Positions 22,352 through 47,822 of a stretch of DNA of 51,371 nucleotides are shown in pieces. Numbering within the stretch: position 1 is the stretch's first letter; each line of letters begins with the position of its first letter. The notes under the pieces are model-generated. The model was not told where the DNA came from, searched no databases, and worked only from the letters and a program-made list of their open reading frames with translations. Source of the DNA: an uncultured Candidatus Saccharibacteria bacterium (GTDB taxonomy: Bacteria; Patescibacteriota; Minisyncoccia; Phycocordibacterales; SW-6-46-9); NCBI GenBank assembly GCA_964534365.1, contig CAZHOI010000001.1:254171-305541 (forward strand), written 5' to 3'. Both the position numbers and the translations under genes were made by a program.

Positions 22352-22426
22352 AATTCTTTTTCGTTGATAATTCTAGAAAATTATCTGCCTCATGGCATAG
22401 ATTTATAGATAAATCTATGCCATGAG
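22352..22426 (-). promoter_or_regulatory. nusG leader; fully palindromic variant of the motif
   Basis: CTCATGGCATAGATTTAT-AG-ATAAATCTATGCCATGAG at 22389-22426, then GGCA and the AT-rich hairpin. Confidence 0.75.
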
Positions 22427-22464
22427 CTGATAGCTTTTTATAGTAGTTATCTTATCTTAAATCT

Positions 22465-22647
22465 TTAAGTTAAGAAAGGGTCAAATAGTCTAATAAATAT
22501 TGCGTCTAGGGCCCCTAGATAACCGGCAACCAAGAGTGAAATGACAATTACAATAGCCGTATATGCAACTGCTTCGCGCCTAGTTGGCCATTGTATGTAG
22601 GATAACTCACCCTTAACACCACGTAAAAATGTAGAAATGTTTGACAT
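22465..22647 (-). CDS. secE: Preprotein translocase subunit SecE
   Basis: ELSYIQWPTR motif plus one TM; upstream of nusG. Confidence 0.93.
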   Translation of the reverse strand: MSNISTFLRGVKGELSYIQWPTRREAVAYTAIVIVISLLVAGYLGALDAIFIRLFDPFLT

Positions 22648-22716
22648 AATTTTCAGTTATTATTTGCCTTTGAACTATAACTCAAATTCGCTGCAAATTA
22701 AAGGCTGCTATGGAAA

Positions 22717-23715
22717 TTAAACTAATCCTGGGTCGACTTTTTCTTGATCTTGTTTGGTTTTAGCCTCGACTTCGGCATCAGATAGCTGAATGGATTTATC
22801 ACCTGCCAAATATACAAGTAGCGGTGAAGCTAAAAAGATCGATGAATAAGTTCCGGAAATAATTCCCACAATTAACATCAAGGCAAAATGATTGGTTGAC
22901 TCGCCTCCAAAAATATATAAACATATCAATACCACTAGCGTTGTTAGCGAAGTATTCAATGACCGGGCATAGGTTTGTTCCAATGATAATCCGACTACTT
23001 CACCAAAAGTAGATTCAGGAGACACCTTCTTGCCATTGATAACATTAGTAGCTTCATCACCGTCTTGTAGTCGCATCAAATTTTCCCTGGTCCGATCAAA
23101 TACTACAATTGTGTCATTAACCGAATAGCCTAAAATCACCAGCAAGCCCATCACAAACAATAAATCAACTTCAAATCCCAGCATATAGCCTAATAGGGCA
23201 AAAAAACCAGTCGGGATTAAAATGTCATGGATGAGAGCGACCACTGCAACTGCCCCATATTTCCAAGACTGGACCGGCCGCGAAACTCGTCGGAAAGCAA
23301 AGGCGATGAAGGTAATTATCCCAGCCACTACTAACAAAATAGCTACTAAGGCTTTGGTTCGCAGTTCTTGCCCAACTGATGGGCCCACCGCTGATTCGCG
23401 AATAATACGCGCATCATCAGCTTCAAAAACTTCCCGAGCTAATTCTATTTCATTATCAGCTAAAAACGGGGTTCGCAATACGTAGCGATCATCTTCAACT
23501 GGTTGTAAAGTAACTCCTTCTAGGCCTACTGCTTCAAGATTTTGCAGGACTACCTCCCGCGATGGGCGATCGGTAGTATATTCGGCTTCAATTATATTTC
23601 CGCCAGTGAATTCAATAGATAAGTCTAGTCTAAATATAGAAATCAACAATACCGAAGCAATTGCTAGGACCGCCGAAATGATTACAAATATTTTTTTGCG
23701 ATTTATTACAAACAT
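22717..23715 (-). CDS. secF: Protein translocase subunit SecF
   Basis: SIEFTGG, VGPSVGQEL, GYSVNDTIVVFDRTREN, RSLNTS. Confidence 0.97.
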   Translation of the reverse strand: MFVINRKKIFVIISAVLAIASVLLISIFRLDLSIEFTGGNIIEAEYTTDRPSREVVLQNLEAVGLEGVTLQPVEDDRYVLRTPFLADNEIELAREVFEADDARIIRESAVGPSVGQELRTKALVAILLVVAGIITFIAFAFRRVSRPVQSWKYGAVAVVALIHDILIPTGFFALLGYMLGFEVDLLFVMGLLVILGYSVNDTIVVFDRTRENLMRLQDGDEATNVINGKKVSPESTFGEVVGLSLEQTYARSLNTSLTTLVVLICLYIFGGESTNHFALMLIVGIISGTYSSIFLASPLLVYLAGDKSIQLSDAEVEAKTKQDQEKVDPGLV

Positions 23716-23717
23716 AT

Positions 23718-25142
23718 TTAATTATTATTTGACCTAGAGCCCGGATTAATAATCGAATTGGTAGCAAGCCAAGAACGCTTGATTCTGTCGGTGCTGATTG
23801 CCAGCAAGGCGGTTCGAGTAACAAATACAGCAGTGATTACCGACACGATAATACCAATTACAAAAGTGACCGCAAAACCTCGCAATAGCGAAGTTCCAAT
23901 CCAGTACAAAATCACTCCAGTAATCAACGATGACAAGTTTCCATCACGAATTGATGGCCAAGCACGGGCAAAGCCGTCAATAACCGCTTGTCTTAAGGTT
24001 TTAGATTTATCTTGGAGCTCTTCATTTAGTCGCTCGAAAATTAGTACATTAGCATCGACTGCCATTCCGATTGATAGTATAAATCCAGCAATACCAGCAG
24101 CCGTCAACACTACCCCAAAAACTTTAAAAGCAGATAAGATCAGCGCTATATATAGTGCCAGCGCTACAACAGCTACCACACCCGCCAATCGGTAACGTAT
24201 TATCAAAAATAAAGCGACTGCGGCTAGGCCGATAATACCAGCCAGGATACCCCCCTCTCGAGCCTCGGCTCCTAAAGTCGCCCCAATTTTTTGGACCGAA
24301 GAAAGCTCTATTGGTACCGGCAAAGCTCCTAAGTTCAAATCATCGACTAATTGTTTAGCCTCTTCCGCTGTAAACCCACCTGAAATTACCGCTGTACCAC
24401 CGGTTATAGGTTCGTTAATTCTAGGTAGCGAAATCGGTGCACCATCTAAAAATATTGCCAATGTACCGCCGACATTATCGCGGGTGATTTGTTCAAACAA
24501 CTCTTCGCCTTCGTCGTTAAAATTAGCTAATACCACTGGCTCGTTAACGGCATATTGCTGCCCATTACCGAATTGCAAAATGGATCTCTCGAGCAAAGAC
24601 CCGTTCAGTCCGGTTGAAATGAATTGCTCGTCTAGGGCAGCTTCAATATCAGCAACCGGTTCACCGGTATCTGGGTCAATTTCGATAATGGTATCAGCCG
24701 GCGATTCAAAATCTGGATTGAGCAATTTAAATTCCAATACTGGTGTTCGCCCAATTGTTTCGACTGCTTCGGCGACGTCAGTTACCCCAGGTAGTTCTAC
24801 AATCAAACGCTGGTCGACCGCATCGCCCGATCCCAACCCAGCCGATTCTACCTGCACCACTGCCTCGGAAGTTCCTAGCGCATTAACTCGCTGCTCGATT
24901 ACTTGCCTAAGCGATTGCATCGAATCAGAAACCTCGGTCGGGGCCAAATCGGAAGTGTCGGCATCAAATACAAGGTGAGTACCACCCGATAGATCAAGAC
25001 CATATTTGATCTTATAATTTGACGGATAGACTTCGGTTTCGTAAATAAAAGCGCCCAATACTCCTAGTAATACTACCCAAATAGCTAAATAAGTCTGATA
25101 TTTTTTTGCGCTGCTGGCTGGCTGTTTTAGTGATTGCCCCAT
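23718..25142 (-). CDS. secD: Protein translocase subunit SecD
   Basis: GLDLSGG, GALPVP, IGMAVDANVLIFER. Confidence 0.97.
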   Translation of the reverse strand: MGQSLKQPASSAKKYQTYLAIWVVLLGVLGAFIYETEVYPSNYKIKYGLDLSGGTHLVFDADTSDLAPTEVSDSMQSLRQVIEQRVNALGTSEAVVQVESAGLGSGDAVDQRLIVELPGVTDVAEAVETIGRTPVLEFKLLNPDFESPADTIIEIDPDTGEPVADIEAALDEQFISTGLNGSLLERSILQFGNGQQYAVNEPVVLANFNDEGEELFEQITRDNVGGTLAIFLDGAPISLPRINEPITGGTAVISGGFTAEEAKQLVDDLNLGALPVPIELSSVQKIGATLGAEAREGGILAGIIGLAAVALFLIIRYRLAGVVAVVALALYIALILSAFKVFGVVLTAAGIAGFILSIGMAVDANVLIFERLNEELQDKSKTLRQAVIDGFARAWPSIRDGNLSSLITGVILYWIGTSLLRGFAVTFVIGIIVSVITAVFVTRTALLAISTDRIKRSWLATNSIINPGSRSNNN

Positions 25143-25193
25143 ATTATTATTGGTTATCGTATCGTGTTATATCATTAATCTCAATAACTAAAA

Positions 25194-33746: not shown

Positions 33747-33802
33747 GGCATAGATTTATCTTTTTAACGCTTTTAACAATTGTGTAAAAGAAATCTATTA
33801 GC
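33747..33802 (-). repeat. GCTAATAGA...TCTATGCC motif copy in the 23S-5S spacer
   Basis: GGCATAGATTTATCTTT...AAAGAAATCTATTAGC on +; long-loop form like the rplK copy. Confidence 0.8.
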
Positions 33803-34005: not shown

Positions 34006-34032
34006 GGCATAGATTTTTAAAAATCTATTAGC
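34006..34032 (-). repeat. Motif copy just 3' of the 23S
   Basis: GGCATAGATTTTTAAAAATCTATTAGC, adjacent to the same AAAATTTTAGAAAATTT hairpin seen in rplK and rpsG leaders. Confidence 0.85.
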
Positions 34033-34311: not shown

Positions 34312-34343
<32 letters not shown>

Positions 34344-34419: not shown

Positions 34420-34420
34420 T

Positions 34421-36872: not shown

Positions 36873-36923
36873 TCCGACTCCTTGTAGACACACGGTTTCA
36901 GGTCTATTTCACTCCCTTTGCCA

Positions 36924-36965
<42 letters not shown>

Positions 36966-37176: not shown

Positions 37177-37291
37177 CGACGCATCACGCGAAGCATGATG
37201 CTCATGTAGCACATAACACGTATCTTGGAGCAAATTGTTCCATGTTTTATGATTTATGCTTCATGGCGATCACATTCCATGTGATGCGCCG
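37177..37291 (-). other. 23S insertion, about helix 16-18 region
   Basis: GCATCAC/GTGATGC ends with terminal hairpins. Confidence 0.8.
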
Positions 37292-37633
37292 GTTTGGGCT
37301 CTTCCCGTTTCGCTCGCCGCTACTCGGGGAATCGATTTTTCTTTCTATTCCTCTTGGTACTGAGATGTTTCACTTCCCAAGGTCAGCTTCCCGATGACTT
37401 ATGCATCGGAATTACGAGGTTTTACCTCGTAGGGTTTCCCCATTCGGAAATCCCGGGGTAAGTTTGTTAGGCAACTAACCCGGGCTTATCGCAGCCGTAC
37501 CACGTCCTTCATCGCTCTTTAGAGTCAAGGCATCCGCCGTGTGCCCTTAGTCGCAGACACTTCCTTATAGGAAAGCTGCGCACCAAGTCTTTTCTACACT
37601 CAACGATCCCGCTAGTCGGGATTGTTTCGTTAT

Positions 37634-37661
37634 GGCATAGAAATCAGTGATTTCTATTAGC
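37634..37661 (-). repeat. Motif copy in the pre-23S leader
   Basis: GGCATAGAAATCAGTGATTTCTATTAGC on +. Confidence 0.85.
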
Positions 37662-37774: not shown

Positions 37775-37803
37775 GGCATAGATTCTTTGGAGAATCTATT
37801 AGC
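37775..37803 (-). repeat. Motif copy in the pre-23S leader
   Basis: GGCATAGATTCTTTGGAGAATCTATTAGC on +. Confidence 0.85.
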
Positions 37804-38189
37804 CGCAACGCTTTTTAACGAAAGTGGTGATTCTGATACTTTTATAAAAAAATGTATCAAAAATTAAATGCTTTTGCTTTTGAGACGTTATCGATTCAAA
37901 TGAATCGAACATTTTTGTTTGGTTGCCCCTCCCTCAGGCTGAGTGAGGGGCGGATAACAAGATGTCGTGCTAAATTAATTAAAATTAATCGCACGTAACG
38001 TTTGTCATCCCGACATTTCGTCGGGACAAACGTTGATATTCTCATTCGTATTCAATTGTCAATGATCTCCCCGTGATTGCAGAAGCTAATGAAAACGACC
38101 GCGGCAAGCGGTCGTTGGTCAGTCTTGAAGACTTACCGTTAACTACTTGTCAGTTGTTTTCTTGTAATCTTCTTTAACACGTGGGTGAT

Positions 38190-38218
38190 AATATAACCGA
38201 TGCCAATTTATAAGTCAA
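38190..38218 (-). promoter_or_regulatory. Likely sigma70 promoter of the 23S-5S transcript
   Basis: TTGACT-17 nt-TATATT on the minus strand; boxA-like GATCATTGACAATTGAATA at about 38068-38049. Confidence 0.7.
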
Positions 38219-38366
38219 ACATTTAGTAAAAATTCTTATATCTTGCCTTGTTTAGCTTCAAAAATTATTGTATTATCACTTTGAACTCACACGCAAGTTG
38301 CCGCATTAATAGCAGTGCGAGCTTGCCCTTTTCACCCCCCCCAACTACCGCCTCGGCGGCAAAATC

Positions 38367-38930
38367 ATGTATGACCCTGAGAAAAACCAGGTCAGAGTAA
38401 CTACTCTTGAAGCCGCACAGTATCAAGACTTACTACGACAAGGTTTGTTGCGAAAAAAGGCTTGGGACATTGCCCGGCTTGTTAAATTATACCGAGAAGA
38501 AAAACCTATTCCTGTAGGTCAATTTTATGAACTTATTACTAGTCATGAAAATCTTCTATTTAAAGTGTTTATTGCAGGAATGTTATCAGGTATCGCATTG
38601 GCAACAATCCTATTTACACTAGGCTACCAAAACCTAGCATGGACCGCTGTTCTTATCGCTATTGCATTTTTATGCTGTTACATGCTTTTGATAATGGCTT
38701 TTTCATTAATTTATAAAGCCATAGAAGAAGACCTTAAAGACATCAGGAAAACCAAACCTGTTTCTGTTGACGAGATACTAGAAGATCTGGCTAAACTCTT
38801 TGAGCAACAAAGTGAAGATGCTTGGCATGAGTCTCAGCGATTGCAATTGGTTGTAGAGGACGAAAGAGAAAGGTTTCGCATCTGTAATGACCTCTCAGTA
38901 ATGATTGAAGAAGAACTCAAACAGGCATAG
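38367..38930 (+). CDS. Orphan two-TM membrane protein
   Basis: 187 aa, two central TMs, coiled-coil-like C terminus; structured C-rich leader. Confidence 0.75.
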   Translation: MYDPEKNQVRVTTLEAAQYQDLLRQGLLRKKAWDIARLVKLYREEKPIPVGQFYELITSHENLLFKVFIAGMLSGIALATILFTLGYQNLAWTAVLIAIAFLCCYMLLIMAFSLIYKAIEEDLKDIRKTKPVSVDEILEDLAKLFEQQSEDAWHESQRLQLVVEDERERFRICNDLSVMIEEELKQA

Positions 38931-38999
38931 TTATGGTTGAGGCTATCGAGAATTGGGACACTGCTAGCTTTCGAGTTAGCACCTCCCTCTCCTCGGTTT

Positions 39000-39926
39000 T
39001 TATTTACCAAAATTTTTCAGCAGCCAATCCTGGGCATTTTCATAAAACAGCTTGTCTGCCAATGATTTACTAAAGGATTTTACAACTGCTTGATACAAAT
39101 TTGGCAAATCACTTACCCGCTCTAAATCCTGAATTGCTACCTCGTGCAGACAACCGCCAAAATCGGTTCCCAGCGCGAGGCTATTGTCCCCTAATTTATT
39201 TGTCAAGTAATCGATTTGTTGCAAGACATCTTCAATTGTTACCTGTCTAGAAACTTTTACAAAATTACGCGATAACATTAATCCTACCAAACCATTTGAT
39301 TGCTTGATTGTTTCCAGTTGCTTATCAGTCAAATTACGATGTTGTCCGGTATCAGATATAGCTCTGGCATTGGCATGTGAAACTAGTATGGGCTGGTCGT
39401 AGTGTCGCGCTGTCTGCTCGAAACTGGTGTCATTTAGATGCGCAAAATCCACTAATATCCGATTGTCCTTGCACCATTTAATTACCTGTTTTCCTTTATC
39501 AGTTAGCTTGCCTTCCCCTTCATTTCCACCGGCAAATGAATTATTCGAAGTATGAGTAAGCGATAATGACCTCATTCCTGCCTCAAACAAATAATCAAGA
39601 ACCCTCAGTAGATCGGTTTCGGCAAAACTATCTAGGGATTTCAAACCCTCTATATGGTAAATAAATCCTCGAAACTCATTGTTATTCAAACATTTCTGCA
39701 AATCTGATTTGCAACATACAATTTGCCATCCATGTTGAGATCGGTAAAAGCTTACTTGCCTTTGGGTTTGAGTCGGCAGAGATTCAGCAAGCGATAGCTC
39801 ACCAGTTGTAAAAATAACTCTTGCATCCGAATTTTCTAATTGCTGAATTGAAGTCTGATTTTGAATTGGGTAGCTTATTGGCCACCGCTGATGTCGATGC
39901 AAATCTTGATGTAAGTCAATAAACAT
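39000..39926 (-). CDS. Membrane dipeptidase (M19) family protein
   Basis: IDLHQD, HIEG, LVDFAH, VSHAN, RNLTD, GTDFGG. Confidence 0.9.
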   Translation of the reverse strand: MFIDLHQDLHRHQRWPISYPIQNQTSIQQLENSDARVIFTTGELSLAESLPTQTQRQVSFYRSQHGWQIVCCKSDLQKCLNNNEFRGFIYHIEGLKSLDSFAETDLLRVLDYLFEAGMRSLSLTHTSNNSFAGGNEGEGKLTDKGKQVIKWCKDNRILVDFAHLNDTSFEQTARHYDQPILVSHANARAISDTGQHRNLTDKQLETIKQSNGLVGLMLSRNFVKVSRQVTIEDVLQQIDYLTNKLGDNSLALGTDFGGCLHEVAIQDLERVSDLPNLYQAVVKSFSKSLADKLFYENAQDWLLKNFGK

Positions 39927-40005
39927 TATGATTAATTATAGCTTTACGATTCAATAATTATACCTCTAACCAATTAAACCATTAATAATTTGTTAAAATA
40001 AATTT

Positions 40006-40596
40006 ATGATCTTACGACACGGTTTTACCTTGCTAGAGCTATTAGTTGTGATTGCTATTATTGGTATTTTATCCACAATTATATTAGCAGCTCTTAACGG
40101 TGCTCGTGGGAACGCTTACGAAACCAAGGTTGCTCAAACTCTGGATAGTGCTAATAAAGCGATTGAAATTTATCGGCTTCAAAACGGACATATTCCATTT
40201 GGTAATTTTGCCGGAGATGATTTGGGTGCTAGTGATCTATATAAAATTGGTGAGTGTAAAAACGGGATGTCTTTTGTTAATTCACCAACTCCATTAACTT
40301 CGATTGACAATGAAATAAGAGATTTGATAGCAGTTGAAAACCTTAATCTCGACAATGGTTGTATTTTGTATTTGATACCTACTCATTCCTATGGGGTAGA
40401 AGAATGCCTGGATGAGCCAGCTGCAAATGCTACTTTTTGTAGTTATGAATACCTACTACTACACCTACCATATGAAATTGGAGATGAGATAGATTTTAAT
40501 AATGAAAATTTTGAGTGTGTATTTGCCTATTCGCCAGCTGATGATAGTTTAAAGTACTCAGATTATGGTTATATTTGCCTGCCCTCACGAAATTAA
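40006..40596 (+). CDS. Type IV pilin / prepilin
   Basis: GFTLLELLVVIAIIGILS N-methylation motif; six Cys in the head domain. Confidence 0.92.
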   Translation: MILRHGFTLLELLVVIAIIGILSTIILAALNGARGNAYETKVAQTLDSANKAIEIYRLQNGHIPFGNFAGDDLGASDLYKIGECKNGMSFVNSPTPLTSIDNEIRDLIAVENLNLDNGCILYLIPTHSYGVEECLDEPAANATFCSYEYLLLHLPYEIGDEIDFNNENFECVFAYSPADDSLKYSDYGYICLPSRN

Positions 40597-40802
40597 AGTG
40601 TTAAAGCCATATTTACTGCTTTTGGGGCTGTAGTTTAAAATCTATGCTGATAAATACTTGTCTTTAGCCAAGTACTTATTAACAAAGATTTTTTATCGAG
40701 AATCAGCTCGGTTCATTTACCTTAATGCTTACATTTTATCCAACAGAGCGGGCGGCTGGGATCGGGGTTTGAACCCGACCCATGCCGCCAGCTATTGCCG
40801 TG

Positions 40803-41015
40803 CTAGTCACCTGGTCTCAAGCCATTATGGTAATGAGAATGTCGTTCTGTCGCACTTTCTGCTTCAACCTCTGGTACAAAGGTACCACCAATAATTCTCC
40901 CGTAGCGTCCAGTGTTATTTTCAAAGGCGCGATTAGAGTCAGGGTCGATAGTGAATTCTGGTCGATATGACCCTTTTCCTGAATAAGGTTCAGGGCCGTT
41001 GTTGTAGCAAGACAT
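40803..41015 (-). CDS. Possible 70-aa orphan with structured pyrimidine-rich leader
   Basis: In-frame ATG at 41015 within ORF-track 40803-41078; GC-rich hairpin GGGCGGCTGGGATCGGG at 40749-40790 lies downstream. Confidence 0.35.
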   Translation of the reverse strand: MSCYNNGPEPYSGKGSYRPEFTIDPDSNRAFENNTGRYGRIIGGTFVPEVEAESATERHSHYHNGLRPGD

Positions 41016-41237
41016 TTTTTTGGGAGAAAGAGCAAGACGAAGGGTTCGACCTGCTCGGGTGTGAGAAGGTCGGACCATTGCGGTCCATCGGGTTAAAGAC
41101 GATCCCTTTCCCGATTAGAATTTCCACAATGTTGAAACTTTAATCGGGATTCTATCCGATAAATTTGATAGAAATAAAAAAGCCGACTCAATCCTGATGG
41201 ACTGGCCGGTTCGTCGAGTTTTTATTCTTTCTCTAGT

Positions 41238-41372
41238 TTAGTTTTTAGAGAAATCCCCATGAACCGGCCTGATTGCATAAGTGCGGACAATAATGAAGTC
41301 GAGCACCATAAAGCACACTACGTCTGTAAACGTATTCCACATTTTGCTGACGTGAGTTTGCGGCTGATTCAT
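41238..41372 (-). CDS. Possible 44-aa hydrophobic peptide, or a structured ncRNA
   Basis: MNQPQTHVSKMWNTFTDVVCFMVLDFIIVRTYAIRPVHGDFSKN; TTGACA upstream at 41413; terminator with T6 at about 41177-41206. Confidence 0.4.
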   Translation of the reverse strand: MNQPQTHVSKMWNTFTDVVCFMVLDFIIVRTYAIRPVHGDFSKN

Positions 41373-41501
41373 GGGTGTATTTATAAAGTAGCTTAATTTT
41401 TCAGCTATTGTCAACCGATATTTTGAAACTGGGGATAACCTGGAGCATGGAGAGTATATACGTATTACGAGTTACGAGAATGTATGATATAATTTTCATA
41501 T

Positions 41502-41801
41502 ATGAGTAAATTAAAAATTAAAAAGATTGCCGAGGCAGCCGATTTGCTTAAAACCCTGTCAGGTTCATTCAGGATGGAAATCATTTGCCTGCTTTGCAGT
41601 AATCAGGCAATGACCGTTACCGAAATTACCCAGCAGCTTAAAAGTGAGCAATCGGCCACCTCGCATCAACTAGCTAAGTTACGGGCCGATAAAATAGTTC
41701 AGGCCCAAAAAGATGGCCAAACTACAAAGTACCAACTAGCCAAAACAGCTGAAGCTAAATTGGCTAAAAAAATCATCACTAACTGTGACTGCCTTAAATA
41801 A
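41502..41801 (+). CDS. ArsR/SmtB-family regulator
   Basis: LKTLS...RMEII...QSATSHQLAKLR. Confidence 0.9.
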   Translation: MSKLKIKKIAEAADLLKTLSGSFRMEIICLLCSNQAMTVTEITQQLKSEQSATSHQLAKLRADKIVQAQKDGQTTKYQLAKTAEAKLAKKIITNCDCLK

Positions 41802-41818
41802 CAATAATCAATCATATT

Positions 41819-42073
41819 ATGACTACAAACAATACTGACAATAAAAAAGTTATCATTTATTCAACCCCAACCTGCCATTACTGCAATGTCGCCAAGGATT
41901 ATTTTACTGATAACCAGATCGATTACACTGAACACAATGTTGCCGAAAATCCAGTGGCGCGAACTGAAATGGTTCAATTAACCGGACAATTAGGGGTTCC
42001 GGTTATTAAAATTGGTGACGAGGTTGTAGTAGGGTTCTCGGAACCGCACATCCGCGCCTTGTTAGAAGCTTAA
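41819..42073 (+). CDS. Glutaredoxin / NrdH-like redoxin
   Basis: IYSTPTCHYC, TGQLGVPVI, VVGF. Confidence 0.93.
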   Translation: MTTNNTDNKKVIIYSTPTCHYCNVAKDYFTDNQIDYTEHNVAENPVARTEMVQLTGQLGVPVIKIGDEVVVGFSEPHIRALLEA

Positions 42074-42102
42074 GTCTTAATATCTTTACTCGCAATAAAT
42101 TT

Positions 42103-42131
42103 GCTAATAGATTTTGTAAAAAATCTATGCC
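42103..42131 (+). repeat. Motif copy on the + strand, 12 nt before ATG 42144
   Basis: GCTAATAGATTTTGTAAAAAATCTATGCC. Confidence 0.85.
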
Positions 42132-42143
42132 ATTCTATAAATA

Positions 42144-42401
42144 ATGCCAAATTCTAAAAAAGATACTACTAAAAGAACTCGTGATCGAACCCTGGTTTAC
42201 TGGGCGTTTGGATTAATTCTGGCTGCCCTAGCTTTATTAATCTTGGGTAGATTAATGACCGACAGTCTTGAAAATGAAACTACCACCCAAGAGATTAGAC
42301 TGGATTCAGAACCGAATGGATTAGAAATTACCACTGATGGACTTGAAAATGCAACTGGTAGCACTCTTCCTGATCTATCAACTGAAATTAACGTTGAATA
42401 A
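42144..42401 (+). CDS. Small bitopic membrane protein (FtsL-like topology)
   Basis: Basic N terminus, one TM, acidic Thr-rich tail. Confidence 0.7.
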   Translation: MPNSKKDTTKRTRDRTLVYWAFGLILAALALLILGRLMTDSLENETTTQEIRLDSEPNGLEITTDGLENATGSTLPDLSTEINVE

Positions 42402-42433
42402 GATAGTTTCTAATTAATACTCAGTGAAATAGA

Positions 42434-42733
42434 CTAAAAATCACCGTTTTTTAAATTTAGGACATTGATTAAATAAGCTTTTGCAGCCAACCAGCTTTCA
42501 TCAAGTTTATCTTTTTCTTCGGCAATAGTTATCGCTACATAAATCCGTTCCAAAAAAATTCCAAGGTTTCTACGAGCTTTCACGTGAACTTGGTTTTGAT
42601 AAAATTCTTCTAAACTACCGTAAGTTTCTTGGAACCTAGAATATGAACTAGAGAAAAATCCGTTTTCGAATCTTCTTATCGCTTCGGTGACGTAAATATC
42701 CTCGCCAGGAGTTAAATGTGGACTTTCAAACAT
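42434..42733 (-). CDS. Hypothetical protein
   Basis: ATG at 42733 lies 6 nt after TGT-TACAAT; 99 aa. Confidence 0.6.
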   Translation of the reverse strand: MFESPHLTPGEDIYVTEAIRRFENGFFSSSYSRFQETYGSLEEFYQNQVHVKARRNLGIFLERIYVAITIAEEKDKLDESWLAAKAYLINVLNLKNGDF

Positions 42734-42775
42734 ATGTTGATTGTAACAAAAAAACCCCATCATTGGGGTAATGTC

Positions 42776-44953
42776 CTAGCTACGGCTTTTGATGATTTCG
42801 CCTGCCACATTATCCGGCACTACCGCATAGTGGTCGAATTCCATCGTCATATTTCCCCGCCCCGATGTCATTGACCGCAGTTCAGTCGTATAACCAAACA
42901 TCTCGGACAGTGGCACCTTGGCATTAATTGCGGTATTTAACCCACGCTGTTCGCTGGCTTCTACCAATCCCCGCTTTGATGCCAAGTTTCCGGTAATATC
43001 ACCAATATATTCGTCTGGCACGACCACCTCGACTTTCATCATTGGCTCTAATAGTGCTGGCTTTGCTCGCTTGACACCCTGTTGAAATGCTTGGGAGCCA
43101 GCAATTTTAAAGGCGACCTCGGACGAGTCTACGTCATGGTAAGAACCATCAAACAGATCAACGGCAATATTCACCATTTTATAACCAGCCAATACTCCTC
43201 GATCCATAGCTTCTAGAATTCCTTTTTTAACTGCTGGAATAAACTCTTGAGGAATCACGCCGCCTTTGATGCTATTGGTAAATTCAAACACATCATCGCG
43301 ATCCACATTTTTAGGCACTTCTTCGTCTGCAACCGCCGCTGGATCGAATGGAGTAATCCGGATTTTTACGTGACCGTACTGACCCCTACCACCAGATTGC
43401 TTTATGTATTTCTCTTCCGCTTCGGCATCAGCTAAAATGGTTTCACGATAAGCAACTTGAGGCTTGCCAACATTTGCATCCACGCTAAATTCGCGCTTCA
43501 TTCGATCTACAATAATATCCAAGTGCAACTCGCCCATTCCCGAGATAATAGTTTCGTTAGTTTCTTCGTCAGAGGACACGCGGAAAGTCGGATCTTCGTC
43601 GGATAGTTTAGCCAGGGCAATTCCCATCTTTTCCTGATCAGCTTTCGTCTTTGGTTCGATTCGAAGCGAAATTACCGGTTGTCGGAATTTGATCTCTTCT
43701 AATATTACCGGATTATCTTCGTCACATAACGTATGGCCGATTTTGGCATCTTTCATCCCTACCATAGCCGCAATTTCACCCGCAAATACTTCTTTAACTT
43801 CCTCGCGTTTATCAGCCTGTAGTCGCACAATTCTACCGACTCGCTCTTTGGATCCAGTAGAGGCATTATAGACATATGAACCGGCCTCAACTTTTCCGGA
43901 ATAAACGCGGAAAAATGACAGCTGACCAACAAAAGGATCGGTTTGAAGTTTAAATACTAGGGCCGAAAACGGCTCGGCTGGATCAGAGGTTCTGGTAACT
44001 TCTTCTTCAGTTTCGGGATTTTTACCTTTGGCAGGTGGTAAATCTAGTGGTGATGGCAGGTAATCAACTACCGCATCCAGTACTAATTGAACCCCCTTAT
44101 TTTTTAGAGCAGAACCACAGTAAACTGGGAAAATAGCGTTGTTGATAACCGCTTTGCGCATTAGTCTTTTGAATTCTGCTAGATCAGGCTCATTGCCCTC
44201 CAAATATGCATTCATTGCCTCGTCATCTTGTTCTACTACTTTTTCCAACAGCTCGGCCCGATATTTTTCTGCTTGTGCGCGTAGCTCATCAGGAATCTCG
44301 GCCTGGCGTACCTCCATCCCCATATCACCTTCAAAATAATAGGCTTTCATCTCGACTAGGTTAATCACACCTTCATGCGCCTCTTCTTCACCAATAGGGA
44401 TTTGGGCGCGAATCGCATTTGGAGACAATCGATCTATAATCGACTGAAATGATCGATCGAATGATGCGCCGGTACGGTCCAGTTTATTGATAAAACACAA
44501 CCTTGGCACTTGTGCCTCCTCGGCGTAGCGCCAGTTGGTTTCTGATTGTGGCTCTACCCCAGCTACCGCATCAAATACCACTACCCCACCATCCAAAACA
44601 CGCATTGAACGCTGTACTTCGGATGTAAAGTCAATATGTCCCGGCGTGTCAATGATGTTAAACCGATGCCTAGCATCAGAATCACCATCAGTTGCCTGGG
44701 CAACCCCTTCTTCGTTTAACCTAGCGTGGGTCGGAGTCCAAAAACAGGTAATAGCCGCAGCCGTAATGGTAATGCCACGCTCGCGTTCTTGTTCCATCCA
44801 GTCGGTGGTTGTTTCACCATCGTGAACCTCACCAATTTTATGTGACATTCCGGTGTAAAACAGAATTCGTTCCGAAGTAGTGGTTTTACCTGCATCTACG
44901 TGGGCCACGATTCCAAAGTTGCGTACTTTTTCTAGAGGGTAATCTTTACTCAT
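42776..44953 (-). CDS. fusA: Elongation factor G
   Basis: AHVDAGKTT, ERERGITI, DTPGHIDF, NKLD, GMGELHL, PQVAYRE, KQSGGRGQYGH, GSYHDVDSS. Confidence 0.99.
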   Translation of the reverse strand: MSKDYPLEKVRNFGIVAHVDAGKTTTSERILFYTGMSHKIGEVHDGETTTDWMEQERERGITITAAAITCFWTPTHARLNEEGVAQATDGDSDARHRFNIIDTPGHIDFTSEVQRSMRVLDGGVVVFDAVAGVEPQSETNWRYAEEAQVPRLCFINKLDRTGASFDRSFQSIIDRLSPNAIRAQIPIGEEEAHEGVINLVEMKAYYFEGDMGMEVRQAEIPDELRAQAEKYRAELLEKVVEQDDEAMNAYLEGNEPDLAEFKRLMRKAVINNAIFPVYCGSALKNKGVQLVLDAVVDYLPSPLDLPPAKGKNPETEEEVTRTSDPAEPFSALVFKLQTDPFVGQLSFFRVYSGKVEAGSYVYNASTGSKERVGRIVRLQADKREEVKEVFAGEIAAMVGMKDAKIGHTLCDEDNPVILEEIKFRQPVISLRIEPKTKADQEKMGIALAKLSDEDPTFRVSSDEETNETIISGMGELHLDIIVDRMKREFSVDANVGKPQVAYRETILADAEAEEKYIKQSGGRGQYGHVKIRITPFDPAAVADEEVPKNVDRDDVFEFTNSIKGGVIPQEFIPAVKKGILEAMDRGVLAGYKMVNIAVDLFDGSYHDVDSSEVAFKIAGSQAFQQGVKRAKPALLEPMMKVEVVVPDEYIGDITGNLASKRGLVEASEQRGLNTAINAKVPLSEMFGYTTELRSMTSGRGNMTMEFDHYAVVPDNVAGEIIKSRS

Positions 44954-45023
44954 GTCTTTTTTCGTTAAATAATTTTATAAAAATTATTTGCCTCATGGCA
45001 TAGAAATTGTAATTTCTATTAGC
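44954..45023 (-). promoter_or_regulatory. fusA leader with the motif
   Basis: GCTAATAGAAATTACAATTTCTATGCC-ATGAGGCA-AT-rich hairpin-AACGAAAAAAGAC-ATG. Confidence 0.75.
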
Positions 45024-45192
45024 ATGTGCATTTAATCTTTTGTTTAATAATTTTAATAAATAGGTGTTATTGACGCGCTCGCTGTTATTAATAATAAAGG
45101 AGGCTAGTGTCAGGCCTGCACTATACCCGAAAAGGCTTGATTTTTGAAGTTTTATAGTTCACTATTTGACTGAACCACTAGCCAAGACACAC

Positions 45193-45605
45193 ATGTTGTC
45201 AAATTATCTCTCGCTGGAAATGTTCCTTGAGGCAAAAGCACGAGCATTATTAAGACTAGAAATAGACCAGAATTTTAATTTACGGGACCTACAATCTAAA
45301 GGTAGATATGGCCAAACTCTATATAGCCTTTTGTATTATATAAAACATCTATCGACTCCGGATTTTATGCAATTACAGAGTTTTCAATGGCATTTCTCGA
45401 CCTTAGAAAATTGGTAAGAGAATACCTTAAATTTAGACCCCATCCTTGCCCGCGAAGCTCTTCAAAGGCTTATTCAAGACTTGAAAAAAAAGGGCTGTTT
45501 AGGAAGAATGTCGAGCTTGTTGAACGCCCCGACACTGTGTTCGGGGCGTATTTTATTCTTTTAAATATTTACTCTAAATCCTGTATACTAATAACCAATG
45601 GGTAG
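45193..45605 (+). pseudogene. Two overlapping short ORFs (45193-45417 and 45387-45605), possibly one frameshifted orphan
   Basis: 31-nt overlap in different frames; a terminator-like CGCCCCGA/TCGGGGCG hairpin lies inside the second ORF. Confidence 0.3.
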
Positions 45606-45921
45606 ATTCGTTTACAATCAGCAGCAAAATAAAACCACTGTAGATGAAAATTTATTGCGGCAATCTGATGCCGACAAAGATATAGTGCAATATCACTCAC
45701 AAACCGAACCTTATGTGAGTAATAATTCTGGATTTAAACCAGGCAATCAAATTCAAAAATCAAATAATGTCAGCCACCAGAAACTATCATACTTAAAGAG
45801 CGAGATTGATTTCATGGTTGATGGATTTATGCGTGAATTAATTGATTTCGATTCATTTGGAAATCTGGACCCTCAAATTCAATCCGAAATCGCTAACCGC
45901 TACCCACAATTTTTCAATTAG
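45598..45921 (+). CDS. Hypothetical protein
   Basis: 107 aa; TG-TATACT 8 nt before ATG. Confidence 0.6.
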   Translation: MGRFVYNQQQNKTTVDENLLRQSDADKDIVQYHSQTEPYVSNNSGFKPGNQIQKSNNVSHQKLSYLKSEIDFMVDGFMRELIDFDSFGNLDPQIQSEIANRYPQFFN

Positions 45922-46014
45922 TTTTCAGCTAGAATATAACTGAATTTTGATTTAATAAATAAGAGCCTTGGGCTGGCAATTCCCTAGGCTCTATTAGTAA
46001 TTCTTCATGATGGT

Positions 46015-46329
46015 TTAGGTTAGCGGATCTTTTTCGATTATTTGCGAGACCTCGTAGGCGCTTAGCATGACATCATTGTCGCAATATTGCGCCTGATACG
46101 CTGTCGGATTATTTAACCATATCCTTAGATCGGCCGGATGCAAACCCAAATAGTGACAGCAACCATCGAAGAATTCTTGGGTAGGCTGTTTTTGCATGCA
46201 TTGTTTTCTGACGTAACCAAAACTATTTCCAAAACTCCTCTCAAATGCGGCAAAATCCATGCCACCTGATTCGGCGGCGCGAATTAGGTATAACCAAAAT
46301 CTACCAAGGTGCGTGATTTTCTTCATCAT
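46015..46329 (-). CDS. Orphan, possibly XRE-like HTH
   Basis: FAAFERSFGNSFGYVRK...QPTQEFF...YLGL resembles the XRE fold. Confidence 0.55.
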   Translation of the reverse strand: MMKKITHLGRFWLYLIRAAESGGMDFAAFERSFGNSFGYVRKQCMQKQPTQEFFDGCCHYLGLHPADLRIWLNNPTAYQAQYCDNDVMLSAYEVSQIIEKDPLT

Positions 46330-46420
46330 TTCAAAGAATGTATTAACCCCAACGATTGTAAGGTTAAAGGATGAAGGAGTTCCGAGTATTTATTATAGCA
46401 ATAAACTGGCTGGCTGGGGG

Positions 46421-46987
46421 TTAATTTGAAATTGAGTGCAATACAATTTTAAGCTGCGTAATCAACCTAGAAATCGAACTGCGCAATCTGGCAATTTTGT
46501 CAGAATCACCTTCAATCTCAGCGCGATCAGCAACTGAATGGTCAAGGTAAAATTGTCCAATTTCAGAATCGGTTGAGTAAAACTGACCATAACTAAATAC
46601 ATTGGTTTGGTAGTCGCGAACAACTTCAAATACCCCTTCTTCCCCTAAGCCACCAGTACTGTCGCATTGATCAGCAGTAGTGTCATCTTCATTTGGATCA
46701 GGCAACCGATGTTTGACCCAGAATTTTGCTGGGACTCTACCTTTGAGCACTTTTTTAGTCTCGATCTGATGTAATTCATAATTATCAATCACTTTTTCAG
46801 CTATGACTACTCCATGTAAAACTTGAGTATTAAAGTATTCACCCAAATAATCATCGTGCATTATTTCGTGAGCTCTTTCAGTAGTTTTGTCCCCGCAGTC
46901 CAATGCAAAGGTGGTCATTGGAGTTAAAATGGTAATTGCTAATCCCAGACTTAATAATATTGTTAAATAATTTATTTTTAATGTCAT
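46421..46987 (-). CDS. Secreted protein, possibly TIMP/NTR-like fold
   Basis: Signal peptide then ALDC; VLHGVVI...KKVLKG...C pattern. Confidence 0.65.
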   Translation of the reverse strand: MTLKINYLTILLSLGLAITILTPMTTFALDCGDKTTERAHEIMHDDYLGEYFNTQVLHGVVIAEKVIDNYELHQIETKKVLKGRVPAKFWVKHRLPDPNEDDTTADQCDSTGGLGEEGVFEVVRDYQTNVFSYGQFYSTDSEIGQFYLDHSVADRAEIEGDSDKIARLRSSISRLITQLKIVLHSISN

Positions 46988-47166
46988 AATTATCTAGACG
47001 AATGAAAGCCAAGTTTATTACAGGTGACCATAAGTTTACCAAATAAATTAATCTATAAGCCGGAAGGCTTAGTATCTTGATGAAGTAAGAGGAATTGAAA
47101 ATCTGCGTCGGATACATACCATGTAAATGTTTAACTGTGGGTGTATTTAGAATGAATATTTTGATT

Positions 47167-47247
47167 AGTTCAAGGCATAAAGAAAAACTAACCCGAGGCG
47201 TATACGTAATACGATGAGGGTCAGTTTTTCTGCAGTAACGCAGAAAT
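47167..47247. repeat. Fourth copy of the ~80-bp REP/MITE-like element, downstream of rpsG
   Basis: GTTCAAGGCATAAAGAAAAACTAACCCGAGGCGTATACGTAATACGATGAGGGTCAGTTTTTCTGCAGTAACGCAGAA closely matches 17469-17547. Confidence 0.85.
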
Positions 47248-47267
47248 CATTAAAATAGGCTTCTAAA

Positions 47268-47750
47268 TTACCAGGCGAAGTGGGCAAAGGCCTTGTTTGC
47301 CTCAGCCATACGATGAGTTTCTTCTTTCTTTTTAACCGCTGAACCTTCGTTGTTTGAAGCGGCTAAAATCTCGGCGGCTAGTACCTTTGAAAAGGCTTTG
47401 CCTTGAGATTTTCTAGTTTTTCGCGCGGCATCAGTAATCCAACGGAAAGCCAGCGATAATCGGCGATTTTGTTTGACCTCGCGAGGTACTTGGTAGTTGG
47501 CACCACCGACTCGGCGCGACCGGACTTCCATCATTGGTCCAACGTTTTTAATCGCTTCATTAAAGACTTGTAGGGGTTCATCATTTTTGGATTCTTTGGC
47601 TACAATGTCTAGTGCATCATAAACAATTGATCGGGCCAGGTTCTTTTTCCCGTCGAGCATGATGTAATTGATAAATCGGGCCAGGTTTTCTGATCCATAT
47701 TTAGGATCTGGTTTAATCGGGTCTTTCTTTTTAAGTGGTCGTCGTGGCAT
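47268..47750 (-). CDS. rpsG: 30S ribosomal protein S7
   Basis: MPRR start at 47750, [32 protein letters not shown]. Confidence 0.98.
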
Positions 47751-47822
47751 AACTTTTTTTACAGTTAGAAATTTTAGAAAATTTCTGCCTTGTGGCATAG
47801 ATTCTTTGCAGAATCTATTAGC
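47751..47822 (-). promoter_or_regulatory. rpsG leader with the motif
   Basis: GCTAATAGATTCTGCAAAGAATCTATGCC-ACAAGGCA-GAAATTTTCTAAAATTTC-TAACTGTAAA; nearly the same as the rplK leader. Confidence 0.78.

Follow-up and report, generated by a model that had tools for sequence, protein, structure and literature searches.

What kind of element precedes four translation genes in a 51,371-nt stretch of a Candidatus Saccharibacteria genome (the window), and how might it work? Pfam identifies the downstream products as L11, NusG, EF-G, and S7; the true start of rpsG is the ATG at 47750, and a TTG at 47834 was discarded. The original prediction described an extended motif, an AU-rich hairpin, AAC(U)G, and an A-rich run in all four leaders, 36–43 nt from motif to AUG, and this was borne out. 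UCUAUGCC-NNNN-GGCA, the AU-rich hairpin, AAC(U)G, and the A-rich run are common to the rplK, nusG, fusA, and rpsG leaders, with TCTATGCC-to-ATG distances of 36, 42, 43, and 43 nt. TCTATGCCNNNNGGCA occurs four times in the window, always on the minus strand (18252–18267, 22386–22401, 44989–45004, and 47786–47801), against a mean of 0.22 in the shuffled window, where four copies were reached in 0 of 100 shuffles. The pairs rplK/rpsG and nusG/fusA had been called almost identical, which is too strong: pairwise identity among the four leaders is 72–81%, with 41/51 aligned columns identical for rplK/rpsG, 42/52 for nusG/fusA, and 43/53 for nusG/rpsG.

The four leaders and their family

All four cassettes lie on the minus strand. 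The rpsG cassette (copy M19, 47751..47822; gene at 47268..47750) comprises hairpin 1 (47794–47822, GCTAATAGA ... TCTATGCC), UGCC-ACAA-GGCA (47786–47797), hairpin 2 (47768–47785), and a tail of AACTG and an A-run (47751–47767). Before fusA (42776..44953), copy M18 (44954..45023) has hairpin 1 at 44997–45023, UGCC-AUGA-GGCA at 44989–45000, hairpin 2 at 44968–44988, and a tail of AACG and an A-run at 44954–44967. The nusG cassette (22352..22426; gene at 21806..22351) is a variant, in which the bulged hairpin 1 is replaced by a perfect 17-bp palindrome (22389–22426), formed by the 3' arm together with an inverted duplicate of it, followed by GGCA (22386–22389), hairpin 2 (22366–22385), and the tail (22352–22365). 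The rplK cassette (18224..18316; gene at 17789..18223) carries a long hairpin 1 with a 40-nt inner insert (18260–18316), UGCC-AUAA-GGCA (18252–18263), hairpin 2 (18234–18251), and a tail (18224–18233); it falls outside the range of 22352–47822 originally given for the module.

These leaders are the mRNA-type members of a two-hairpin cassette of about 50 copies that is private to this bacterium. The 0.76-Mb genome holds 49 copies (47 strict ones plus the rplK and nusG forms), with a cassette length of about 70–120 nt. An exact pattern has 31 matches here, none for the reversed control pattern, and none in 40 relatives; a covariance model finds 41 matches here, none in 120 genomes of the same order, and a single marginal one (E = 0.004) in 150 genomes of the same phylum. 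No Rfam family matches the cassette, and the organism's own 16S and 23S rRNAs contain no look-alike. The predicted modular element on highly expressed genes stands to the extent that 40 of the 49 copies are neighbours of genes for rRNA, tRNA, ribosomal proteins, or translation factors; 18 of the 49 are antisense to their neighbours. All 12 mRNA-type copies, full or variant, are sense and end at an ATG, and an identical 42-nt 3' part reaches the ATG of prfA, rpsR, and rplB. At murC, rplX, fpg, rplR, and an 85-aa ORF, hairpin 1 stands alone, 8–13 nt upstream of the start codon.

The tails stop exactly at the ATG or where a mature tRNA or rRNA ends, and their type follows the gene. An A-rich tail accompanies protein genes in 12/12 copies, and a GAGCGUAAAYAG-type tail accompanies stable RNAs in every copy except M32, which has protein-gene neighbours; M37, M39, and M42, with the latter tail, directly abut no annotated RNA gene. 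The tails of M01 and M36 abut the 3' ends of tRNA-Phe and tRNA-Leu at the same 38–45 nt. Within the window, on the minus strand, M16 is the first copy upstream of 23S rRNA (hairpin 1 at 37775..37803; second hairpin GGCAAAAUUAAAUUUUGCC), and M15, also upstream of 23S (37634..37661), has a G+C-rich second hairpin and a tail ending where the 23S processing stem begins. M14 lies directly downstream of 23S (34006..34032), with an AU-type second hairpin containing TAAAAT, and M13 lies upstream of 5S rRNA (long hairpin 1, 33747..33802), with a G+C-rich second hairpin. GGCA is absent from these four rRNA-flank copies, as predicted. M17 (42103..42131, plus strand) consists of hairpin 1 alone and lies 12 nt upstream of the ATG that opens the 85-aa ORF, which has no Pfam match.

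The base of hairpin 1 is conserved (GC / UAA bulge / UAGA...UCUA / U / GC) and its tip covaries freely; the second hairpin begins 8–12 nt after hairpin 1. Counted among paralogous copies of one genome, 98.8% of 400 cells in hairpin 1 are paired and 4 pairs change on both sides; in hairpin 2, over 28 copies chosen because the hairpin was visible, 82.7% of 231 cells are paired and 10/10 pairs change on both sides. These values were reached in 0/500 shuffles for either hairpin. Gene conversion between the arms of inverted repeats could mimic selection here, and copying of this inverted kind does occur in this genome, as seen in the nusG palindrome. Seven copies keep a G+C-rich second hairpin with no -10 box, which makes a folded single strand, and not a promoter, the common feature of the family.

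The four leaders have no SD-like purine run, in line with the original prediction; the missing SD, however, is a genome-wide trait and not a property of the module. The anti-SD has not been kept: the 3' end of 16S rRNA reads ...GGAGUAUUUCAAUU, without CCUCC. Of 424 ORFs, 2.6% have an SD 4-mer at -20..-3, less than the 6–7% found further upstream, and a -10 box lies 4–10 nt before the ATG in 148/507 ORFs (~29%). The SD absence and leaderless-type pattern have already been published for the lineage (PMC9297842).

A candidate promoter inside hairpin 2

A -10 profile derived from 148 leaderless-type genes of this genome reads tGnTAtAAT and contains no -35 signal. Promoters in this organism appear to require a -10 box only. 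We tentatively propose, at somewhat less than even confidence, that the cassette is a portable promoter and short-leader unit for 5' expression. Most likely, the loop and 3' arm of hairpin 2 in mRNA-type copies form a strong -10 box, TAAAAT or TAGAAT, and RNA polymerase would begin at the conserved AAC|(U)G 6–8 nt past it, giving an mRNA with an A-rich, G-poor leader of 6–15 nt. On the minus strand, the predicted boxes are TAAAAT at 47771..47776 for rpsG (ATGCCA-16-TAAAAT; 8.4 bits; start at ~47762–47764, within AAC|UG), TAAAAT at 44972..44977 for fusA (ATGCCA-18-TAAAAT; 7.0 bits; start at 44963–44965), TAGAAT at 22370..22375 for nusG (7.5 bits; start at ~22361–22363), and TAAAAT at 18237..18242 for rplK (8.4 bits; start at ~18228–18230), the last three starts likewise at AAC|(U)G.

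The hairpin 2 box ranks in the top 0.1–0.2% of the genome, with the conserved AAC(U)G at its predicted start. At 8.4 bits, ATTTTCTAAAAT exceeds the genomic 99.9th percentile (7.31); it occupies a fixed place in 14/47 strict copies, and an independent consensus scan picks the same -10 sites. In M33, the segment of -10 box, AACUG, and A-run recurs beside an ATG without its hairpin partner. The cassette box reads TTC-TAAAAT and lacks the TG extension present in 56% of the genome's promoters, and elsewhere in this genome leaders of 6–15 nt show no enrichment. M01 and M36 carry a strong candidate -10 box that faces the 3' ends of tRNA-Phe and tRNA-Leu; both tRNAs have TATAAT boxes of their own. With the best box inside hairpin 2, the predicted start falls downstream of most of the module, which leans against its reading as a leader.

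The whole might instead be an RNA element, transcribed from upstream, whose hairpins act in RNA as a cleavage or trimming signal (leaving a short leader or none), a 5' stabiliser, or a co-regulating factor's binding mark, the -10 look-alike being incidental. We regard this as possible but on balance unlikely. The covariation in both hairpins and the G+C-rich hairpin 2 variants speak for it, as do the hairpin-1-only copies, whose 8–13 nt before the ATG leave no promoter room, and the tails, which stop precisely where a mature tRNA begins or at the foot of the 23S processing stem. Candidate upstream promoters also exist: among the 18 sense copies that precede protein genes, 9 show a -10-like box scoring 5 bits or more no further than 30 nt upstream of the cassette, the sole good box of rplX, rpsA, and fpg is upstream of hairpin 1 (at -157, -21, and -20), and in the two tRNA-Ala copies TGT-TATATT ends 3 nt before hairpin 1. 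Against this, the runner-up box within 300 nt upstream of rpsG reaches just 5.3 bits versus 8.4 inside the cassette, and nothing is conserved at a fixed distance before hairpin 1 (<=0.33 bit per position), with a -10 box 0–4 nt before it in just 6/47 copies. Antisense copies, moreover, could not show the same bulge to an RNA-binding factor, and no candidate nuclease or binding protein was found.

Less surely, under the promoter reading, some transcripts may come from upstream, by operon read-through or from the -10-like box seen ~26 nt before hairpin 1 at rplK and fusA, and these would contain both hairpins as RNA. Hairpin 1 would then probably be a structure near the 5' end that stabilises the RNA, directs its processing, or binds a factor; for the hairpin-1-only copies, an RNA-structure role would be the only one open. 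Tandem rrn P1–P2 promoters and a boxB-boxA-boxC leader form a repeated promoter-plus-hairpin unit before rRNA operons and in rRNA spacers. The cassette may similarly have two starts, one from the upstream box and one from the box inside hairpin 2; it differs in having no boxA-like sequence by eye and in also serving single protein genes in former operons.

Selfish repeats and riboswitches

A less probable view is that the cassette is a selfish or neutral repeat (MITE-, REP-, or PATE-like) that spread recently, is not maintained for a host function, and is tolerated near highly expressed genes through a chance start signal. REP sequences and REPINs have a conserved stem base, a variable tip, both orientations, and inverted pairs, as the cassette does (M30/M31, the M23–M26 cluster, nusG). 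Correia elements (NEMIS) of Neisseria, Rickettsia palindromic elements, and ERIC are likewise small structured repeats beside or between genes, some of which supply a promoter or an RNase processing site and are transcribed along with their neighbours. Restriction to one lineage, near-identical subfamilies (hairpin AATCACTGATT is common to M15, M29, and M43), a copy within the ileS reading frame (M12), and public DNA contigs that break or misjoin at copies, as at any repeat, all fit this view, as do the genome's genes for one IS200 transposase and four RAYT-like Y1 transposases. The cassette shares with REP/RAYT systems (PMC8049555) short extragenic imperfect palindromes in many copies and the presence of RAYT-like genes, but each Y1-transposase gene here is flanked by its own, different G+C-rich hairpins. 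The cassette differs from those systems further in its second hairpin, its gene-type-specific tail ending at the ATG or mature RNA end, and its strong bias to the 5' side of highly expressed genes. It is smaller than the Correia, Rickettsia, and ERIC elements and keeps a constant distance from start codons and mature RNA ends, and we saw by eye no terminal inverted repeats in its copies and found no conserved target sequence on its 5' side. The subfamily follows the kind of gene served, and an insertion between closely packed ribosomal-protein genes would do damage if the element did not restore expression.

UGCC/GGCA is a subfamily sequence and not a demonstrated switch. The original prediction had it compete with the G-C pairs below the bulge, in an element for translation initiation or a switch that depends on a ligand. 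The two pairings do exclude each other, GGCA is confined to copies before protein genes, and GCC-NNNN-GGC does replace two sub-bulge G-C pairs in the minimum-free-energy folds of 7 mRNA-type copies, but we consider this reading very improbable, since neither pairing covaries, the competing alternative is only two G-C pairs (G1-C33 and C2-G32) invariant in 40/40 distinct rows, the U-A pair is lost uncompensated in 2/12 mRNA-type copies (M29 and M30), and the nusG UGCC is locked within the 17-bp palindrome. Although riboswitches and ribosomal-protein autoregulatory leaders in Rfam are also structured 5' regions before ribosomal-protein genes, the cassette serves many unrelated operons without a common metabolite logic, and has no expression platform, with neither a terminator nor start-codon sequestration downstream. 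A ligand-sensing or translation-specific role is unsupported, as it does not fit the 18 antisense copies or those before tRNAs and rRNAs, which carry the same hairpin 1.

Known promoter reuse and a proposed splitting of operons

Promoter reuse, in which highly similar upstream regions precede non-homologous genes of one genome, has been described in prokaryotes (PMC3575422). Like these reused or mobile promoters, the cassette places similar upstream regions, with a candidate -10 box and leader, before different genes, but it contains two hairpins that covary and numbers ~50 copies in 0.76 Mb. Almost all of these serve the translation apparatus, to which the stable RNA genes are counted; a third of the copies are antisense, and the promoter is a predicted one.

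In relatives, the same genes form tight operons in which the cassette is absent. The genes rpsL and rpsG are contiguous in 5/5 genomes of the same family, and the rpsC–rplP gap is 2–10 nt in 4/4 relatives versus 101 nt here, cassette included. Opposite-strand ORFs lie upstream of rpsG and fusA, so these genes need a promoter of their own. The cassette would let genes such as rpsG, fusA, and rplP be expressed alone after ancestral operons were split or interrupted.

The four leaders and the family they belong to

Upstream of four minus-strand genes, whose products are L11 (rplK), NusG, EF-G (fusA) and S7 (rpsG) by Pfam, the same layout recurs: TCTATGCC, four bases (ATAA, ATGA, ATGA and ACAA), GGCA, an AU-rich hairpin centred on AATTTTCTAAAATT, AAC(T)G, and an A-rich run reaching the ATG. 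The original prediction had described this arrangement, and it was borne out in all four leaders, as was the distance from TCTATGCC to the ATG (36, 42, 43 and 43 nt). The range it gave began at 22352, leaving out the rplK leader (18224-18316). The pattern TCTATGCCNNNNGGCA has four matches in the window, exactly the four leaders, against a shuffle mean of 0.22, and four or more matches occurred in none of 100 shuffles. The rplK and rpsG leaders, and likewise those of nusG and fusA, had been called almost identical; pairwise identity among the four is 72-81%, and neither pairing is special. In the nusG variant, hairpin 1 is a perfect 17-bp palindrome, composed of the 3' arm and its own inverted copy.

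The upstream half of each leader consists of GCTAATAGA, a variable stem and loop, and TCTATGCC, and more copies of this two-hairpin cassette lie in the window, flanking the 23S and 5S genes and ahead of one small ORF. Allowing at most two mismatches across 17 fixed bases, we counted 47 strict copies in the whole 755,701-bp source assembly (G000); with the rplK long form and the nusG variant included, the family has 49 members. A filter on the inner pairs failed only one of 50 raw matches, the rplK long form, so the pairing in hairpin 1 was not produced by the filter. The base of this hairpin is invariant (G-C, C-G, a UAA bulge, UAGA/UCUA, and one U facing the bulge) and its tip covaries. In the 41 normal-length copies, pairing holds in 98.8% of 400 cells, and four pairs are altered on both sides (42 cells), with double changes such as AUUUU/AAAAU, AAAUU/AAUUU, AUUUC/GAAAU and AAUC/GAUU; none of 500 shuffles matched these values. 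Hairpin 2 begins 8-12 nt farther on. Among 28 copies, selected for having a visible hairpin, 82.7% of 231 cells are paired and ten of ten pairs are altered on both sides, which again no shuffle of 500 matched, and shifting the partner columns reduces every measure. This column-wise count supersedes a crude tally of hairpins in the 3' extensions, in which the copies (36/49) did not separate from control sequence (28/47). The covariation counts compare paralogues of one genome, so that conversion between inverted-repeat arms could also explain them.

Hairpin 2 comes in an AU type with a AAUUUUCUAAAAUU core, a G+C-rich type (AAUCCCG...CGGGAUU and relatives) and several unique forms. The tails differ with the gene that follows. 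Copies ending at the ATG of a protein gene (mRNA-type) carry CUAAC(U)G and an A-run to the ATG, as seen in all 12 full or variant copies, each of them sense; the stable-RNA-type tail, GAGCGUAAAYAG, stops precisely at the 5' end of the mature tRNA or at the base of the 23S processing stem. Copies reduced to hairpin 1 stand 8-13 nt before the ATG or GTG of murC, rplX, fpg, rplR and an ORF of 85 aa. The 23S processing stem is formed by flanks of about 28 nt (37561-37590 and about 34075-34103) just inside the neighbouring cassette copies, and the 23S gene itself (34104-37560) contains insertions, at 3457 nt compared with 2925 model positions. By eye, hairpin 1 lacks the tandem G.A pairs of a K-turn, and no hammerhead core was seen in the cassette.

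In the genomes searched, the family did not turn up outside G000, where the exact pattern has 31 matches and its reversed control none; in 40 relatives, five same-family genomes among them, the pattern has no match. A covariance model built on 22 copies recovered 41 sites in G000, including an extra copy before tRNA-Trp. It found nothing in 120 further genomes of the order, and its single hit among 150 from the phylum was marginal (E = 0.004). Scanning all species-representative genomes with the pattern gave single matches only, in unrelated taxa, and the four such loci inspected (two from Saccharimonadales) were apparent chance matches within coding sequence. None of 79 EF-G loci from metagenomes (identity 73% or lower) carries the motif. 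By eye, no analogous common hairpin module was seen beside the tRNA genes of two same-family genomes, and Rfam returned no family at gathering scores, with nothing up to E = 10 for the rpsG leader. A literature search on leaderless expression and the (anti-)SD in CPR, Patescibacteria and Saccharibacteria found neither leaderless expression nor such a cassette in CPR.

Placement and broken operons

Forty of the 49 copies adjoin rRNA (10), tRNA (14), or ribosomal-protein or translation-factor genes (16). Nineteen are sense copies no more than 165 nt ahead of a protein gene: rplK, nusG, tsf, prfA, rpsR, fusA, rpsG, rplR, rplX, rplP, rplB, rplD, rpsA, groEL, murC, fpg, the 85-aa ORF, an NYN-domain gene that follows rpsO, and a CAP-domain gene, whose copy is at the same time divergent from nusA and 108 nt upstream of it. 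Eleven more are sense copies before stable RNA genes (tRNA-Ala and tRNA-Glu twice each, tRNA-Val, and six flanking 16S, 23S and 5S). Antisense copies number 18. Eleven are on the 3' side of stable RNA genes, where seven abut tRNA-Phe, Thr (twice), Met, His, Leu and Arg, two are farther from a tRNA, and two follow the 16S gene; the other seven occupy the 5' regions of rpsB, rplW, rpsJ and ftsX, two sites upstream of 16S, and a site paired with the rplB copy. The last copy, M12 (C1:253929-253957), falls within the ileS reading frame. This ORF (G000:C1:252701-256243, minus strand; window 1-2073 and upstream) encodes an isoleucyl-tRNA synthetase of 1180 aa with a histidine-phosphatase (His_Phos_1) domain inserted at residues 518-703, and the complete hairpin 1 of M12 sits in frame about 60 residues past that domain. 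Replication direction does not set the orientation, as plus and minus copies alternate, by eye, within 165-170 kb of contig 1.

Six of the seven antisense copies abutting tRNA 3' ends stand at 38-45 nt, equal to the distance of the sense copies from tRNA 5' ends. One idea, and only that, is that a placement mechanism reading the tRNA end as a structure could not distinguish the 5' from the 3' side, because the antisense of a tRNA 3' end is equivalent to the 5' acceptor strand. The 16S gene (contig 2, about 6451-8143, minus strand; locus L205:1572-3264), which is unlinked from 23S-5S, has a sense copy, M24, upstream and two antisense copies, M21 and M22, downstream; inspection suggests some 25 bp of potential pairing between M24 and M21, similar to an rRNA processing stem.

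Several other features accompany the tRNA genes. At C2:121946-122066 (locus L209), M37 is followed by an 11-nt copy of the tRNA-Val 5' end, an inserted stretch of some 70 nt bounded by inverted ends (CACCCAGGAC...GTCTGGGTG), and the real tRNA-Val. Directly beside M42 is an 8-nt duplicate of the tRNA-Arg(GCG) antisense 3' end, tRNA-Arg(GCG) itself being about 200 nt away. These duplicated tRNA ends appear to be the product of later insertions. A 104-aa GIY-YIG nuclease gene (G000:C1:165475-165789) lies between tsf and tRNA-Thr, and a 104-aa ORF without a Pfam match (C1:18794-19108) holds the equivalent position before tRNA-Phe; both tRNAs are then followed by an antisense cassette copy. A different recurring trailer stands behind several tRNAs and the tmRNA in G000, for example at C1:141216-141290 and C5:45127-45200, and consists of a hairpin followed by ...GA(A/G)AGACGGA(A/G).... 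In the same-family genome G003 (loci L223-L251), hairpins of the GCAAATTTCTTTGC type precede GAAAG(A/G)CG(G/C)AG, a pattern that points to an element following tRNA genes across the family.

The cassette has been inserted into operons that are otherwise tight. While rpsL directly adjoins rpsG in all five same-family genomes, the two are 1.9 kb apart in G000, and the interval (47823-49747) holds opposite-strand ORFs without a Pfam match (49041-49694 and 48601-48891), a cassette at the rpsG end, and a hairpin repeat some 45 nt long that is present twice (around 48940-48990 and 48430-48475; AAAACCCACGAACATAAT...GGGTTTT), both copies resembling cassette-end terminators. Between rpsG and fusA there are three further small ORFs without a Pfam match, together with another cassette. 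In four of four relatives, rpsC and rplP are 2-10 nt apart; in G000 the gap is 101 nt and includes a cassette. According to an excerpt of PMC10666635, termination-reinitiation coupling requires overlaps or very short gaps; with gaps widened in this way, the downstream genes must start independently. Since the ORFs upstream of them run on the opposite strand, rpsG and fusA need a promoter of their own. Beyond these genes, the last 170 or so bases of the window (51203-51371) are highly repetitive.

Routes of spread

Identical 42-nt 3' parts, hairpin tips shared within subfamilies, inverted pairs and the in-frame copy in ileS speak for recent copying or gene conversion. The identical 42-nt part stands before the non-homologous prfA, rpsR and rplB, and the rpsG and groEL cassettes are near-identical, as would be seen in a reused or mobile promoter. 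DNA contigs assembled from four runs of one sample over 38000-51150 end or misjoin at cassette copies, in one case fusing the rpsG cassette to the copy upstream of 23S, and no presence/absence variant of the cassette was found in these runs.

The family also shares features with known small repeats. Similar to REP/REPIN-RAYT systems, it comprises many short, extragenic, imperfect palindromes in both orientations, with inverted pairs in M30/M31, M25/M26 and the nusG copy. The 0.76-Mb genome encodes five Y1 transposases, four RAYT-like and one an IS200 tnpA (C1:235281-235919, C2:34920-35495, C1:43694-44359, C5:5747-6349 and C3:17843-18286), each flanked by its own G+C-rich inverted repeats (e.g., GGTGCCAGGGACGTTTG / CAAATGTCCCTGGCACC), and these look like separate small REP-like systems. 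The RAYT-like genes, however, are not flanked by cassette copies; the hairpins beside the Y1 genes differ from the cassette and no copy lies within 2.5 kb of any of them, so we rejected a link to these transposases. With two hairpins on one strand, and with element ends that on inspection are not inverse repeats of one another, the cassette recalls the PATEs derived from IS200/IS605 elements, but no fixed target sequence precedes it (at most 0.33 bit per position over 60 nt upstream), and the hairpins of the resident IS200 (CCACGG...CCGTGG) are unlike it. Terminal inverted repeats of the classical MITE or Correia-like kind were not seen, the empty sites for comparison being those of distant relatives only.

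Promoter, RNA element or switch

The leaders had been described as lacking a Shine-Dalgarno sequence, and that absence turns out to be a property of the genome and not of the module. The suggested check of the 16S gene showed that its 3' end, ...GGUCGUGGAGUAUUUCAAUU (model end) or ...GGAGUAUUUCAAUU, is without the CCUCC core; in G003, the only genome of the family in which this region is assembled, the gene ends in GGAAUGUAUCCUAAUC. SD-like 4-mers occur at -20 to -3 in 2.6% of 424 ORFs, compared with 6-7% farther upstream, and the G content there falls to 8-11%. By eye, the A-rich tail of the cassette has only 4 nt of pairing with the 16S 3' tail. G000, which is 97% complete, yielded no uL1 gene. 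In an excerpt of Tsurumaki et al. 2022 (PMC9297842), a Parcubacteria subgroup without the anti-SD motif overlaps the group lacking uL1; G000 fits that description, and SD loss is a genome trait already published for the lineage. An RNase P RNA candidate (G000:C1:21573-22022) scores 56.9 bits over the full model, where the Rfam gathering score is 100.

Predicted promoters across the genome also lie close to their genes. In 210 genes with at least 70 nt upstream, -10-like hexamers concentrate 5-9 nt before the ATG (62 matches in that bin), and 148 of 507 ORFs have a -10-like box 4-10 nt before the ATG, compared with 41 and 28 in control windows; many leaderless mRNAs are therefore predicted. Transfer RNAs without a cassette have a TATAAT-like box 7-9 nt ahead of position +1, and their transcripts are predicted to be near-leaderless. 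The profile derived from the 148 leaderless-type genes is tGnTAtAAT, in the manner of a sigma-70-type promoter with an extended -10, and a -35 signal is absent.

Scored on this profile, the core of the AU-type hairpin 2, ATTTTCTAAAAT, reaches 8.4 bits (genomic 12-mers: 99th percentile 1.93 bits, 99.9th 7.31 bits), and it occupies a fixed spot, +23 to +25 after TCTATGCC, in 14 of the 47 strict copies. The four leaders score 8.4 (rplK), 7.5 (nusG), 7.0 (fusA) and 8.4 bits (rpsG), and the second-best box within 300 nt upstream of rpsG scores 5.3 bits. An independent consensus scan picked identical sites, ATGCCA-16/18-TAAAAT; ATGCCA was rejected as a -35 element because G000 promoters show no -35 signal. 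The cassette box (TTC-TAAAAT) is without the TG extension, the G of which is present in 56% of the 148 training promoters. Six to eight nt downstream of the candidate -10 box, AAC(U)G is conserved, the expected site for a start at a purine after a pyrimidine, and a start there would yield an mRNA whose A-rich leader is just 6-15 nt long. The -10/AACUG/A-run segment of the rplD copy is repeated beside the ATG with no hairpin partner, which suggests that this segment matters by itself. Together, these features make a private, portable promoter-plus-leader cassette, whose hairpins would also be present as RNA in read-through transcripts, our preferred, though tentative, reading.

The main rival, a leader acting purely at the RNA level in processing, stabilising or factor binding, seems to us somewhat less likely. 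Several copies argue for it. Seven keep a G+C-rich hairpin 2 with no -10 box, the hairpin-1-only copies have no space for a promoter ahead of the ATG, and the only good -10 boxes of rplX, rpsA and fpg are upstream of hairpin 1. In both tRNA-Ala copies, TGT-TATATT ends 3 nt ahead of hairpin 1, and a -10-like box of at least 5 bits lies within 30 nt upstream in nine of 18 sense copies before protein genes. With boxes upstream of hairpin 1 and box-less forms of hairpin 2, at least part of the family is predicted to be transcribed with hairpin 1 near the 5' end. A similar TTAT(A/T)AAAAT box is found at -25 or -26 in rplK, fusA, prfA and rplP, and a two-start arrangement is possible in the four leaders, judging from these motifs. 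However, the region ahead of hairpin 1 shows no sequence conserved at a constant spacing (no more than 0.33 bit at any position across 60 nt), and a -10 box 0-4 nt before this hairpin occurs in only six of 47 copies.

A further possibility, which we consider improbable, is that the cassette marks a whole regulon in cis: one trans-acting factor would recognise hairpin 1 by its bulged base on rRNA, tRNA and translation-gene transcripts. Such a factor, either a protein or a nuclease, would co-ordinate the output of the marked transcripts; alternatively, polycistronic RNA would be cut or trimmed so that internal genes gain a 5' end near the AUG. In a host with no Shine-Dalgarno system and mostly leaderless mRNAs, the cassette would then be a punctuation device, a bacterial counterpart of eukaryotic 5'-TOP logic or of mitochondrial tRNA punctuation.

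The original prediction had also proposed that UGCC and GGCA form a switch. They can indeed pair, to the exclusion of the two G-C pairs under the bulge, and minimum-free-energy folds of seven mRNA-type copies contain a GCC/GGC hairpin; the competition is between two invariant G-C pairs and a hairpin of 3-4 bp. Both alternatives are invariant, so covariation supports neither, the U-A pair of UGCC/GGCA is lost in two copies, and in nusG the UGCC is locked in the long palindrome. Nor is there a downstream part through which refolding could alter expression: the element is not followed by a terminator, and in the folds both the AUG and the A-run are unpaired. As a riboswitch aptamer, the element has no Rfam family and was not found in other genomes for cross-species comparison. 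We therefore regard GGCA as subfamily sequence of the mRNA type. The picture of a modular element serving highly expressed genes thus stands, and that of a translation-specific or ligand-dependent switch does not. A ribosomal-protein autoregulatory leader mimicking rRNA was rejected, as a relaxed pattern search of the G000 16S and 23S returned no stretch resembling hairpin 1, and hairpin 1 stands before at least 19 protein genes as well as tRNAs and rRNAs, at odds with single-operon specificity.

To our knowledge, gene regulation in candidate-phyla-radiation bacteria is almost unstudied. In this genome, one small cassette stands before rRNAs, tRNAs, ribosomal proteins, EF-G, EF-Ts, RF1, NusG and GroEL, and the classical str and S10 operons are split. 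The finding is relevant to how operon-internal genes are expressed in anti-SD-less members of this radiation. If a dedicated factor binds or cuts hairpin 1, the copies would mark a translation-apparatus regulon, none being known in the lineage. Should the cassette prove to be promoter and leader in one unit, it would be a compact natural part for SD-independent expression and a route by which a minimal genome can rewire its most conserved operons.
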